Source of the DNA: Candidatus Micrarchaeota archaeon
Lineage (GTDB): Archaea > Micrarchaeota > Micrarchaeia > Anstonellales > Anstonellaceae
DNA length: 11,320 nucleotides
Assembly: GCA_013331805.1 (NCBI GenBank)
Contig: DUFS01000075.1
Coordinates: forward strand, 5,860 to 17,179
Direction: 5' to 3'
The translations under genes were made by a program, and so were the position numbers. The notes under the pieces were generated by a model. The model was not told where the DNA came from and did no database searches. It worked only from the letters and a program-made list of their open reading frames with translations. Below are positions 3,629 to 8,900 of the stretch, in pieces. Numbering within the stretch: the stretch's first letter is position 1; the number at the start of each line of letters is the position of its first letter.

Positions 3629-3759
3629 GCCATAGTAGCTCAACCTGGGAGAGCAATCGGCTGAAGAACTGCCTGCTGGATAGAGGGATGCTGGATTCCC
3701 CAAAACCCGCAGGAGGTTTTGGGACCGATGTGTTGCTGGTTCAAATCCGGCCTATGGCA
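3629..3759 (+). tRNA. tRNA-Phe(GAA) with 57-nt intron at 37/38 (3667-3723)
   Basis: Acceptor GCCATAG/CTATGGC plus discriminator A, D-stem GCTC/GAGC, anticodon stem ATCGG/CCGAT with loop CT-GAA-G|A, T-arm GCTGG-TTCAAAT-CCGGC; 74 nt after intron removal; CCA not encoded. Confidence 0.92.
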
Positions 3760-3762
3760 TGA

Positions 3763-3840
3763 CAAAATTGCGGAGCAATTTTGGCAGACAGGGGAGCAGC
3801 GGCTCCCATGGATCGGAATTTCGCGCGAGCGAAATTACGA
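3763..3840 (+). repeat. Three consecutive stem-loops in tRNA-Phe/tRNA-Asn spacer
   Basis: CAAAATTGC-gga-GCAATTTTG (3763-3783); GGGAGC-agcg-GCTCCC (3792-3807); AATTTCGC-gcga-GCGAAATT (3817-3836, extendable by TCG/CGA). Confidence 0.8.
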
Positions 3841-3845
3841 AATTT

Positions 3846-3969
3846 GCCTCGGTAGCTCAGTCATTTCTTGAGGGTAAGCCTCTTGAGACTGAACGGTAGA
3901 GCGATGGACTGTTACCGCGCGTTTGCGGCGGAAATCCATAGGTCGAAGGTTCAAGTCCTTCCCGGGGCG
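3846..3969 (+). tRNA. tRNA-Asn(GTT) with two introns: D-loop 17/18 (3863-3894) and canonical 37/38 (3915-3933)
   Basis: Acceptor GCCTCGG/CCGGGGC plus discriminator G; the D-loop becomes AGTC|GGTA after removing 32 nt (BHB helix TCAG/CTGA); anticodon stem ATGGA/TCCAT with loop CT-GTT-A|A after removing 19 nt (BHB helix CTGT/GCGG); T-arm GAAGG-TTCAAGT-CCTTC. Confidence 0.92.
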
Positions 3970-3981
3970 CTTAGAGCGAAT

Positions 3982-4080
3982 CGGGAGCAGTGGAACGATG
4001 CGTCGTTCCGCTCAATCCCGGGCGTACCGAAGTTCGGCACGGGAGCAGTGGTCGCAAGACCGCTCAATCCCGGGGCGCTT
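3982..4080 (+). repeat. Two tandem BHB-forming repeat units, each ending in a copy of the tRNA-Asn 3' end
   Basis: Unit 1 (3982-4024): CGGGAGCAGTGG-aacgatgcgtcgtt-CCGCTCAATCCCGGGCG. Unit 2 (4040-4080): CGGGAGCAGTGG-tcgcaaga-CCGCTCAATCCCGGGGCGCTT. 4068-4080 is identical to 3960-3972. Confidence 0.9.
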
Positions 4081-4084
4081 TTTT
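4079..4084 (+). terminator. oligo-T terminator candidate for tRNA operon
   Basis: First T6 run downstream of tRNA-Asn, immediately after repeat unit 2; archaeal terminators are commonly oligo-T. Confidence 0.45.
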
Positions 4085-4253
4085 CCTTAAGCGGCCAGCC
4101 TCATTTTCCCGATATTTTGATTAAGGATTTTATTCAGGATTTTCTGCCCGAGGAATGCCGGCTTCCCATCATTTTATAAAACATGATTCCCTGCCTTGGC
4201 AACTGAACGCTTTTTTACCCTTTTCCTTGCAAATGGAGCACAAGGTTGATGCC

Positions 4254-4574
4254 ATGATTGACAAGGAAAAAATCCAAAAGGAAGAGGAGGCTGTTGCAGC
4301 GCTTGTGGACGAGTTCAACTCCAAGCTTACCTCCGAAATGAAGGGGCGCCCCTATCTCCTGGTGCTCTCCACATTGTACGAAGTGGAGCGGGAAGGGAAC
4401 AAGAGCAAGATAGCCGCGCAGTGGAACTGGCGCACGAACATCGACAGCAGGACAGAAGGGAGGAAGGAATCCGACATAGAAACCGGCAGAAAGATGATGC
4501 TTCTTCTCATTGACCAGCTCAAAGACGTGGTGGAGCGGCCCAAGAACGGGCTCAAGGGCCGCTACAAGCTCTGA
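4254..4574 (+). CDS. hypothetical soluble protein (106 aa)
   Basis: Natural charged composition (MIDKEKIQKEEEAVAALVDEF...); SD-like aggttgat before ATG 4254 (alternative ATG 4233); stop converges on the eno stop; no family recognised. Confidence 0.7.
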   Translation: MIDKEKIQKEEEAVAALVDEFNSKLTSEMKGRPYLLVLSTLYEVEREGNKSKIAAQWNWRTNIDSRTEGRKESDIETGRKMMLLLIDQLKDVVERPKNGLKGRYKL

Positions 4575-5905: not shown

Positions 5906-8900
5906 TTACTTCTTCTCGATGGAAAGCCTGACGCAGGACTCGTCTATCTCCCACTCCTTGGAAAAGCCGCCTGCGTGATGCGCGAATCCAACGGTCTCTG
6001 CGTTCACCTGGGAGGCAAGAGCCGAAGTGTGGCGCTTGAGAATTGAAAGGAGCTCCTTCCCGTCGGTTTCGATGTGCAGCGCTATCCTGTCTTGCTCAAG
6101 CAGCTTTCTCTCCTTTCGCATGATCTGCACGCGCCTTGCCACCTCGCGGACCATGGCCTCCTCGTAAAGCTCCTTTTTTATTTCGGTTTTCAGGAACACC
6201 CTCCCCCCTTCGAATTGGGAGATGGCAAAGCCTTCTGATTTTTCCTGCACTTCCACCATGTCCCGCTCCACTGCGAATTTTCCCGAGGCAAGAATTGTCT
6301 TCTCCTCGGAAGAAAGCCACGCAGCAAGCTCGGATGGCGGGATGCTGCCAATTGCGACAAGTGCGGCAGGCGAATCCTTCTTGAAAGCAGCCCCGACCTT
6401 GGACTTGTTGATTGTGACAGAATGCTCTGTCCTGGGCTGCTTGCCCGCCTTTGCGCTTCGCGCGTTTGAGAGCGACTCGATGAGCGTGGACAGGTGCTCG
6501 ACTGCGGAGAGGACTTCGGTGGATTCAGAAACCACCCGTATCTCCTCGACCGGCCAGCGAAGCGGGATGGAAGCCTTCTGCCTGCACGACGCTGCCGCGG
6601 TGGCTATCCCCCTTGCGATTTCAAAGCGCCGCTCCAGGAGCTGGTCAATTTTCTTCTTGTCGGATTCCGGGAAGCCGCAGAGGCTTATGGAATCCTTGCG
6701 CTCGAATTTCTTGAAGAATGACAGGTAGACGGATTCGGATATGAAAGGTGCAATGGGGGAAAGGAGCCGAAGCGCGTCGAATACGGCGTAATAGAGCACT
6801 GCCATGGCCGAGCAGCCCTCCCCTTCCTCATCTATCCTCTGCTTCGCGATCTTCATGTAAAAGCGGCTTATGTCCTCGACCAGGAAATCCCGGGCTGCGT
6901 TTGCCGCCAGGTGCGGCCTGTGGGTTTCAAATGCGGATTCGCAGGCCGACACAGTGCCGGAAAGTCGGGAAAGCAGCCACCTGTCCTCGGGCTTCAAAGA
7001 TTCATCAGCAGGGAGGATGGGCTTGCGGTCCGAAGGATAGAATCTTGACATGAACACTCCGAGGTTGTATATGGTCGAAAGCGAGCGGTGGGATTCCTTC
7101 ACCTCGCTCCAGTTGAAGCGCAGGTCGTCCCACACGGTGTTTGAAAGCGACCAGAGCCGAAATGCGTCAGCCCCGTACTTTTCCACCACTTCCTCAAGTG
7201 GCACGAAGTTGCCGACGGACTTGGACATCTTCTCCCCCTTCTCGTCCACGAAAAAGCCGTGCATCAGGCAGACCTTGTAGGGAATTTCGTTGTTCAGCAC
7301 CACTCCTGATCCCAGAAGCGAGTAGAACCAGCCGCGCGTCTGGTCCTTGCCCTCGACTATGAAATCCGCCTTGTGGAACACTTTGCGCTCCTCAAAGGTA
7401 AGCTGCGCCCAGACCGAGTTTCCGGAGTCGAACCAGACGTCCAGCACGTCAGGAACCCGGTGCATCTGCGAGCCGCATTTGGTGCACTTGAACTTCACGG
7501 CATCAATATACGGCCTGTGCAGCTCCTGGACCTTGTGCGCAAGCTCTTCCGCAGAGCCTATGACCTTGAGATGCGAACAATTGCCGCACTTCCAGATTGG
7601 CAGCGGTATGCCCCAGTAGCGCTGCCGCGAGATGCACCAGTCGGGCGCCGAGGCGACGAATTCGCGGAAGCGCGTCTTGGCAAAGTGGGGCTGCCACTCG
7701 CAATGCTCTATTTCCTCCAGCATTTTTTCCTTGAGCTTGGAAACCGAGATGAACCACTGGTCTGTGGCAATGAATATCAGCTGGGACTTGCAGCGCCAGC
7801 AGTGCGGATATCGGTGCGTAACTGCGCTCCTGTGCACAAGCGCTTTGCAGGACTCGAGGTCTGCAATCACCTTCTCCGATGCTTCGCGCACGTGCATGCC
7901 TTCGTAAAAGCCGCCCTCGGCAGTGAATTTGCCAGCCGTGCTGACAGGGGAAAATATCTCTATCCCGAACCTTTTTCCAATTATAAAGTCTTCAGGGCCA
8001 TGGCCTGGCGCGCAGTGCACCAGCCCGCTTCCGTCCTCAAGCGTGACATACTCGTCGGAAAGAACAACCTTGCGTGCGAATTTTTTCCCTATCTTTTCCT
8101 GGAGCGGATGGATGTACTCGGTCTTCTCAAGCTTTTTCCCCGAAATTTCGCCCAGCACTGTCGCGGACTTGCCCACAAGCGACATCAAATGCTCCAGCCT
8201 TTCCTTTGCCACTATCCAGGTCTCGCCATCCACCTTCACCTTCACATAGGTGTAGACCGGGTGAGCCATTATCGCCATGTTGGACACCAGCGTCCAGGGC
8301 GTGGTGGTCCAGATAATGAAGTATTCGTTTTCTGACCCCTGCACTTTGAACTTGACGTAAATCGAGGGGTCGGACTCCTCCCCATACTCGAGCTCGTAGT
8401 TGGCAAGAGTGGTTTCGCAGCGGCTGCAGTAGGGCACCACGTAGACCCCCTCGTGCAGCAGCCCCTTCTCGTGCGCCGTTGCGATCGTCCTCCAGGATGA
8501 CTCGATGTAGCTGTCCTTGTAGGTAACGTAGGGGTTTTCCCAGTCCATCCACACGCCAAGGCTCGAGAACTGCCCGCTGATAACGCCGATGTACTGGGTT
8601 GCGAATGCCTTGCACTTTTCCACGAACTTCTCTATCCCGATTTTCTCAATTTCGCGCTTGTTGGTGAGCTTGAGCTCCTGCTCCACCTTCACCTCGATGG
8701 GAAGGCCGTGCGTGTCGAAGCCTGGCTGGGCCCGCACATTCCATCCCTTGGCCCTCCTGTAGCGGCACACCGCGTCCTTTATGCACTTGTTCCAGGCAGT
8801 GCCGGGGTGTATCTGGCCAGTGGCATAAGGGGGCCCGTCGCAGAAATAGTAGGGCTTTCCCGCCAGGGCAGCCTTTTTTGCCTTCTCGTATATTTTCTCC

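Follow-up and report, generated by a model that had tools for sequence, protein, structure and literature searches.

Tandem units behind a Micrarchaeota tRNA-Asn gene: probable tail-duplicating insertions of a small gene-less element

In the genome of a Candidatus Micrarchaeota archaeon (Anstonellaceae) a tRNA-Asn gene is directly followed by two short, hairpin-bearing repeat units, each of which ends in a copy of the 3' end of that tRNA, and this raises the question whether the units are RNA signals that are cut and joined or pieces of DNA that have been inserted. They lie within a stretch of 11,320 nt from contig DUFS01000075.1, referred to here as the window, at positions 3970-4024 and 4025-4077, immediately 3' of the discriminator base G3969. 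An earlier interpretation (the sequence-only reading) had regarded them as orphan introns of the bulge-helix-bulge (BHB) type, cut by EndA as a device for trailer processing, and had named a mobility footprint or a tRNA-targeting mini-repeat family as a fallback. It is the fallback that our data support, as similar units occur at other tRNAs, orthologous loci are found in filled and empty states, and a core is spread throughout the genus. We favour, with a probability of about 60%, an interpretation where a small and probably mobile element without genes, which duplicates the tail of the tRNA, gave rise to the two units by inserting twice in succession, so that the trailer is a by-product.

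The description of the two units as having constant arms and different, paired cores was correct on re-check, including their positions and bulges. The arms CGGGAGCAGTGG (3982-3993 and 4040-4051) and CCGCTCAATCCCGGG (4008-4022 and 4060-4074) are identical in the two units; the cores differ and both are fully paired (GGAACGA-TGCG-TCGTTCC vs GGTC-GCAA-GACC). All parts are on the plus strand. The array is headed by a first copy of the repeated segment (DR1, 3960-3972), which is the tRNA's own 3' end from T64 to G73 plus CTT. The insert of unit 1 (3970-4015) consists of a linker that forms a small hairpin (3970-3981), CGGGA as an inverted tail copy (3982-3986), the pentamer GCAGT (3987-3991), the hairpin GGAACGA/TCGTTCC (3992-4009) and the conserved end GCTCAA (4010-4015), and is followed by DR2 (4016-4024), a copy of the tRNA 3' end from which one G is missing (TCCCGGGCG). 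The insert of unit 2 (4025-4067) has a linker hairpin (4025-4039), CGGGA (4040-4044), GCAGT (4045-4049), the hairpin GGTC/GACC (4050-4061) and GCTCAA (4062-4067). Its tail copy, DR3 (4068-4080), is TCCCGGGGCG plus CTT and agrees with DR1 at 13 of 13 positions, so that both copies are as they had been described. DR3 is probably the displaced original end of the tRNA with its native flank. The tail motif copied in the window is TCCCGG(G)GCG. That the first T-run lies beyond both units was also borne out: it is a T6 run at 4079-4084, likely to be the archaeal terminator of the tRNA-Asn transcript, and T-runs stand 3' of the distal tail copy in many related units as well. The inserts, 46 and 43 nt in length, contain no open reading frame (ORF), and there is no integrase or recombinase gene between the repeats of the window; integrases occur only in kb-scale islands at those repeats.

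An assembly artefact can be excluded, as in three of four public DNA runs (three studies) both units are spanned by contigs, at 3885-4202, 3898-4300 and 3940-4300, that show 0-1 differences and represent three independent metagenome assemblies; in the fourth run the units are covered in overlapping pieces. The repeat is thus real DNA. Two substitutions were seen, one in the linker hairpin of unit 1 (3978 G>A, in one run) and one in unit 2 (4062 G>A, in two of the four runs), to which we return below.

The locus has the footprint of an attachment (att) site, namely a direct repeat of the 3' part of the tRNA, a regenerated gene and a displaced fragment, and the same is found at five other tRNA loci of this genome. 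Similar units are present once at tRNA-Gln (C46), twice at tRNA-His (C13), twice at a tRNA 3' part at the end of C36, once between islands at tRNA-Asp (C60) and once behind an island of about 6 kb at tRNA-Ser (C37), and each closes with a copy of the 3' end of its own tRNA (here and below, C denotes a contig, L a locus, G000 the window's own genome and other G numbers its relatives). In 19 other genomes the orthologous tRNA-Asn was inspected by eye: in seven (L004, L007, L008, L015, L017, L018 and L019) a hairpin insert is followed by the species' own 3' end, and the remaining loci show either no insert or, instead, kb-scale islands. An empty site in G021 reads tRNA|ctggtgtttgtatggc, and a filled site in G022 consists of the tRNA, a linker and insert, a 14-nt copy of positions 60-73 and then tggtgttcctatggc, with the same host flank beyond the distal copy.

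A core of about 48 nt, with a mean column identity of 92%, is common to three units of G000, at three different tRNAs, and to one unit of G019; its order is TTT-hairpin-AAA, (T/A)CTGTC, a second hairpin and TCCAT. A covariance model (R1) built from this commonest, two-hairpin form of the core has matches in 21 of the genus's 23 genomes (E≤0.01; at most 20 in any one of them), and under stricter filters (E≤1e-5) in 8 of 151 sampled genomes of the phylum, belonging to 5 of 85 genera and including another order. The unit layout also holds in the matches outside the genus, one of them at a non-tRNA target.

This layout begins with a first target copy, normally the tRNA's own tail, and continues with a linker, often an abutting inverted tail copy, the core and a second target copy. 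There are one or two perfect hairpins per unit, and the conserved right end, ...GCTC(C/A)AT, precedes the direct copy, which covers tRNA positions ~59/64-73. Of the 30 best loci, 22 were found to have a T-arm motif upstream of the core, 19 an 11-nt direct repeat (at most one mismatch), and 13 a tRNA scored by Rfam that either heads the array or ends no more than 30 nt from the core; intron-rich tRNAs often escape Rfam. At 8 of these loci the inverted copy next to the core matches in 8 or more bases, and at 13 it reaches a shuffle p≤0.06; it usually contains one central pyrimidine-pyrimidine mismatch. The duplicated target varies by locus from 9 to ~38 nt.

The window units follow the family layout as a reduced subtype, with a linker hairpin, a 5-nt inverted copy, GCAGT, a single hairpin, GCTCAAT and a tail copy. 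A genome search that had been proposed for them (GGGAGCAGTGG-N-CCGCTCAAT) returned just the two window sites in their own genome; the looser pattern GCAGTGG-N-CCGCTCAAT gave four matches in 2 of 121 genomes of the order, three of them in G000, and the fourth (in G001) was dropped as being coding-like and devoid of a hairpin. The third match in G000 (C83:36846-36871, L121) is a unit with the arms and layout of those in the window; it is situated at a non-tRNA site beside the start of an opposite-strand gene, and has its own direct repeat (GCAGCTTG) and its own inverted copy. Units were found at further non-tRNA sites too. The GCTCAAT end is also present in a canonical core of G119, a one-hairpin variant was found in G011, and the linker and inverted copy of unit 2 resemble those of the second unit behind the tRNA-Asn of G015. 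Within arrays the units differ in subtype or in their inner hairpins (C36, L054, L099 and the window), which argues for successive insertions rather than slippage. A BLAST comparison of the locus with 40 relatives gave a match confined to the tRNA body, and in Rfam only tRNA exceeded the thresholds, with no family over the units; a YrlA match of 26.7 bits, against a cut-off of 69 bits, was taken as due to chance. No paper describing such units was found in a full-text literature search, the results of which were judged by titles and abstracts.

The same repeats are used by integrase islands. Contig C60 opens with the tail of tRNA-Asp and, 90 nt beyond, encodes a tyrosine integrase (393 aa, PF00589, 1e-27); the 13-nt tail recurs at 8184, 8276, 12600 and 14781, and these repeats bound three kb-scale segments and one mini unit of 92 nt. 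The motif CTGTCG near the end of the C60 island is probably a coincidence. The array (C60:1-14800, L023) also holds ORFs of CcdA-like, Schlafen/AlbA_2 ATPase-like and NYN-domain type. The body of tRNA-Asp is found at the end of C71, and C36, C60 and C71 all break within near-identical T-arms. In G003, a 10.4-kb element is bounded by the tail of tRNA-Asn and a second element begins behind it; for two further integrase elements no second repeat was found within 11.7 or 20 kb. The C60-type integrase has homologues in 12 of the genus's 23 genomes, many such homologues being encoded 150-250 nt beyond the end of a tRNA. Units are found both proximal and distal to islands (the likeness of island arms being judged by eye); they behave as a further type of insert that shares the site. 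The family, its layout and spread, its insertion-like presence and absence, and its occurrence alongside integrase islands that share its repeats are thus observed features of these genomes.

In the process that we envisage, a lineage-specific family would land in the T-loop or 3' part of tRNA genes, and occasionally elsewhere. Each insertion would bring a linker, in which a short stretch of the target is often repeated in inverted form, as well as one or two hairpins with perfect stems and the right end ...GCTC(C/A)AT, so that the segment from position ~59-64 in the T-loop or T-stem to the discriminator would afterwards be present on both sides. The proximal copy would complete the tRNA and keep the gene intact, while the original tail and its T-run terminator would be displaced downstream. 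The tRNA-Asn of the window would be made in the ordinary way, EndA splicing its two internal introns and RNase Z cutting after G3969, and the hairpin-rich trailer of ~110 nt would be left over. Our best guess is that movement would occur by site-specific recombination or homing at the T-loop, mediated by a factor supplied in trans. One candidate, a nuclease-bearing mini-element, was rejected, as no GIY-YIG domain was seen inside a unit in the 23 genomes of the genus. GIY-YIG domains are encoded there by one UvrC-sized ORF in most genomes (a few are shorter), by a 177-aa ORF in an island of G005 and by a 219-aa ORF in G012. At L057 (G003:C28), about 1.1 kb from a unit, Rfam recognises a group II intron on the minus strand (RF00029, 2668-2743, 43.5 bits vs a cut-off of 40 bits); a source of reverse transcriptase in the genus could bear on the mobility of the units.

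Several points weigh against this interpretation. The R1 model has no match within 3970-4084 and so does not detect the window units, its sole match in the window being a weak one on the minus strand at 3759-3810 (E 0.04); their membership in the family rests on the common layout and the terminal GCTCAAT. No mobilising enzyme or autonomous partner of the units was identified. The integrase family is found in 12 of the 23 genomes, whereas the core is found in 21, and in nine genomes that contain the core a C60-type integrase was not found at 1e-10. The core is absent from both islands that have readable far ends (the right arms in G003 and G019). A unit of ~90 bp is too small to serve an integrase as a double-stranded circle. 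For over half of the 30 loci the inverted copy is missing or unclear, and in the window it has only 5 nt; insertion leaves the origin of this target-matched copy unexplained. Finally, that the units are mobile DNA rather than working RNA is something that we infer from DNA, with which an RNA role would also be compatible.

The alternative that survives best dispenses with an independent element: the units would be decayed leftovers of integrase islands, or local tandem duplications between tRNA-end repeats. Tyrosine-integrase islands do occur at the same tRNAs, bounded by the same repeats, several arrays run on into a partial next unit, and a regenerated gene with a displaced fragment is the textbook signature of an island (PMC4383910). 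We nevertheless consider this unlikely, as random decay would not be expected to leave exact and recurrent junctions between core and repeat, nor a core that is shared to 92% behind three different tRNAs of one genome and recurs behind many tRNAs in 21 of the 23. Derivation of the units by deletion from integrase islands was rejected in view of the island arms without core in G003 and G019, and leftovers would also not account for units that differ in subtype within one array.

Somewhat less probable still is that the units are working parts of the tRNA transcript, either as a minihelix recognised by RNase P or RNase Z (a "t-element"), in which the inverted copy pairs with the distal tail copy and the hairpins take the place of the T-loop, or as an aid to folding or termination. 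A helix can indeed be formed whose 3' strand is that of the T-stem and acceptor of the tRNA and which is closed by the inverted copy (significant at 13 of 30 loci), and the whole trailer of the window folds far better than shuffled sequences (z = -4.38), with T-runs following the distal copy. Hairpins with a perfect stem of 8 bp or more show an 8.5-fold higher density at distances of up to 300 nt from listed tRNAs than genome-wide (28 of 267). The stems themselves, however, speak for another origin: in the 31 best R1 matches, 420 of 434 stem cells are Watson-Crick pairs, with one G-T pair, two A/C and 11 gapped, although stem sequences vary widely. R1, which was used to find the stems, may somewhat favour Watson-Crick pairs in this count. 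Such near-perfect pairing in diverse stems fits DNA palindromes or young copies better than an RNA under long selection. The distal copy, one strand of the presumed minihelix, has decayed in several loci (DR2 of the window, L036, L037 and L043), and the inverted copy is missing in many units and has only 5 nt in the window. Orthologous tRNAs vary in the presence and number of units, and the occurrence of units at non-tRNA sites likewise does not suggest a role in tRNA transcripts. Rows of three or four perfect hairpins are seen in tRNA leaders, spacers and trailers, for example at G000:C46:8645-8759 and at 3760-3845 of the window.

There remains the notion from which the study started, that each unit is an EndA substrate, cut by an ε2-type enzyme and joined by RtcB to yield circles of 25 and 19 nt and a ligated junction GGGAGCAG|TCCCG, thereby processing the trailer or gating maturation of the tRNA. 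Both units do fit the formal hBHBh' arrangement, with a helix GAGC/GCTC, bulges AGT and AAT, an inner helix of 7 and 4 bp, respectively, and an outer helix of only 2 bp, and the predicted excision lengths agree with our BHB scan (four Watson-Crick pairs, 3-nt bulges, outer helix of at least 2 bp, inner helix of at least 4 bp). This geometry, which is formally strict and has an all-Watson-Crick 4-bp helix, is as good as that of the tRNA's own D-loop intron (outer helix 2-3 bp). The absence of a T-run before 4079 suggests that the units are probably transcribed with the tRNA, and an EndA-domain protein is encoded in the genome, by an ORF on C69. In the account that PMC3239211 gives of ARMAN-2, the ε2 endonuclease cuts strict and relaxed BHBs in vitro.

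The same scan geometry, however, occurs 1430 times in the genome within a span of 60 nt, and its compact form, as in the window, 210 times (0.088 per kb per strand, by eye mostly outside tRNA loci), a chance level at which a BHB alone says little; and since the two units have common arms, their BHBs count as one event and not as independent ones. Energetically the BHB fold is disfavoured, as it lies 10.2 kcal/mol above the minimum free energy (MFE) structure in both units (-14.0 vs -24.2 in unit 1, -10.5 vs -20.7 in unit 2), corresponding to an ensemble probability of ~1e-8. The competing fold, in which AGTGG/CCGCT lengthens the inner hairpin and CGGGA pairs with TCCCG, dominates, and the MFE structure of the whole trailer (-54.3 kcal/mol) is cloverleaf-like and not a BHB. 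Nor is the geometry kept in homologues: the unit on C83 has CA before GC in place of GA, which leaves a C-C mismatch and 3 bp of the helix, the closest homologue of unit 2, the G015 unit mentioned above, has no BHB, and when permissive rules were applied to 30 canonical units, BHB-like geometry at the junction was seen in only 3, never as a compact cassette around the last hairpin. The substitution 4062 G>A breaks the pair C4046-G4062, one of the four in the proposed helix. The tRNA-Asn is complete upstream, so that no functional RNA is interrupted by the units; the BHB scan found no BHB that would join the T-loop of the tRNA to the distal copy, and Rfam recognises no family in the region of the joined product. 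As RNase Z (306 bits), RNase P RNA and the EndA-domain protein are all encoded in the genome, no unusual route of 3' processing is needed, and EndA as a stand-in for a missing RNase Z can be excluded. With a disfavoured fold, a geometry that is not conserved, a helix broken by a polymorphism and a tRNA that is complete without splicing, we regard cleavage of the units by EndA as very improbable; the lack of conservation in homologues and the dominance of the competing fold are two of the outcomes that the sequence-only reading had itself named as refuting it. Most likely their intron-like shape is a side effect of this locus. As the C83 unit shows, the GA of GAGC is not part of the element but comes from the locus-specific inverted copy, CGGGA; this copy would happen to end in GA, and this GA, together with the GC of the element, would form the GAGC that can pair with the element's conserved GCTC.

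A connection of the units with introns, which had been proposed at the level of trailer splicing, may nevertheless hold at the level of origin. In G014 (C1, L100, minus strand, ~72600-74900) the core is found inside the T-loop of two tRNAs, with no duplication of the tail. In the Ser-type tRNA a BHB fits (helix GTTC/GAAC, bulges AAT and AAA, outer helix of 3 bp, inner helix of 2 bp and then a mismatch), and cuts at 58/59 would remove 232 nt and restore the T-loop TTCAAAT; the other tRNA has a relaxed motif only. The flanks are common to both inserts, which look like one intron copied between tRNAs. In G008 the T-loop of the orthologous tRNA is intact, and a unit lies in the trailer instead. 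T-loop introns at 53/54 and 59/60 are reported for ARMAN-2 (PMC3239211). A tentative extension of the insertion reading, which we rate as doubtful, is that mini-insertions of this kind are the raw material of T-loop introns in Micrarchaeota, the cassettes of the window being "proto-introns". A T-loop insert arriving with a spare 3' end would be harmless at once. If the proximal spare copy were lost, or never brought, the module would have to be spliced, and it would survive only where a BHB can form, as in the 232-nt intron of G014 at 58/59. The modules of the window would then present an EndA-type motif outside exons and may occasionally be cut and circularised.

The genome in which the window is located has 1.19 Mb in 83 contigs and a G+C content of 52.9%. 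The locus is surrounded by genes for Trm1, the small subunit of RFC, enolase and an Ile/Val-type tRNA synthetase. Two tRNA genes are arranged in tandem on the plus strand, tRNA-Phe(GAA) at 3629-3759 and the complete tRNA-Asn(GTT) at 3846-3969. The former, with a long intron in the anticodon loop, is scored by Rfam (RF00005, 49 bits) and found by ARAGORN with intron search. The latter has exons at 3846-3862, 3895-3914 and 3934-3969, limits that are our own reading of the sequence, as ARAGORN with intron search mis-sets the start of this tRNA; Rfam scores its 3' part (3879-3969) with 29.7 bits. Its introns, in the D-loop (3863-3894) and at 37/38 (3915-3933), correspond to matches of the BHB scan at 3857/3889 and 3909/3928, and the exon joint is corroborated by orthologues that have no D-loop intron and read straight through. 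The spacer between the two tRNAs (3760-3845) contains three hairpins in a row (inverted repeats I1 and I2); 3' of tRNA-Phe it holds GGGAGC-AGCG-GCTCCC and then AT, a sequence similar to a unit's right end but with no tail copy. In its default mode ARAGORN detects no tRNA in the window, and intron search recovers both; in the whole genome between 12 (ARAGORN -i) and 17 (Rfam) tRNAs were detected, many interrupted tRNAs being left unannotated. In many species of the genus a small conserved gene without a Pfam match lies 3' of tRNA-Asn on the same strand (orthologous loci L004, L006, L007, L009, L011, L014, L015 and L017). In the window it is a 139-aa ORF (4155-4574, with a likely start near 4255), and the units are placed between it and tRNA-Asn.

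For annotation, such units matter as they give rise to att-like repeats and to false "partial tRNAs", account for the breaks that contigs show at tRNA ends in these metagenome-assembled genomes and can pass for splicing signals, as they did here. They also touch upon an old open question, why archaeal tRNA introns occur at odd positions and why tRNA genes are so frequently broken. An element that targets the T-loop and 3' end, preserves the tRNA by duplicating its tail and, in a relative, sits within a bona fide T-loop intron, being multi-copy and gene-less, could offer a concrete and testable path from mobile DNA to an intron.

Among known systems, the units are closest in their traces to integration into tRNA genes by integrases, where a direct repeat likewise extends from the T-loop or T-stem to the 3' end of the tRNA or further, the gene is left intact, the displaced copy retains its native flank and arrays arise by successive insertion; here the same repeats also serve real integrase islands. 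The units differ in being gene-less and 45-95 nt long, in having a conserved hairpin core and end motif and often adding an inverted copy of the target, and in occurring in genomes that do not contain this integrase family, while island arms do not contain the core. REP/BIME sequences, MITEs (miniature transposable elements with inverted repeats), RPE and integron attC sites resemble the units in being multi-copy, gene-less, hairpin-forming and intergenic, with stems that vary while the structure is conserved. In contrast to these, the units have no terminal inverted repeats intrinsic to the element, as would be required of a MITE together with a target duplication of fixed length: their inverted copy and direct repeat change by locus, and the duplication varies within 9-38 nt. 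They are, moreover, specific for and oriented to the tRNA tail, and a RAYT, transposase or IntI partner was not found for them. With archaeal BHB tRNA introns, which in Thermoproteales have reportedly been "transposed" between tRNA genes, they share the character of short structured inserts common to unrelated tRNA genes. Their insertion point (58/59 to 60/61) coincides with known positions of T-loop introns, the core lies within the 232-nt intron of G014, and the window units have a formal BHB; unlike introns, they lie beyond the mature tRNA, whose end they duplicate, and do not have to be spliced, and their BHB is neither conserved nor favoured. The model proposed for Caldiarchaeum (PMC3293823) involves a 1.8-kb element that encodes a recombinase, and a 5' tRNA fragment, whereas the units described here are gene-less and carry 3'-end copies; the likeness is that this model, too, ties tRNA fragments and intron gain to a mobile element integrating at a tRNA gene.

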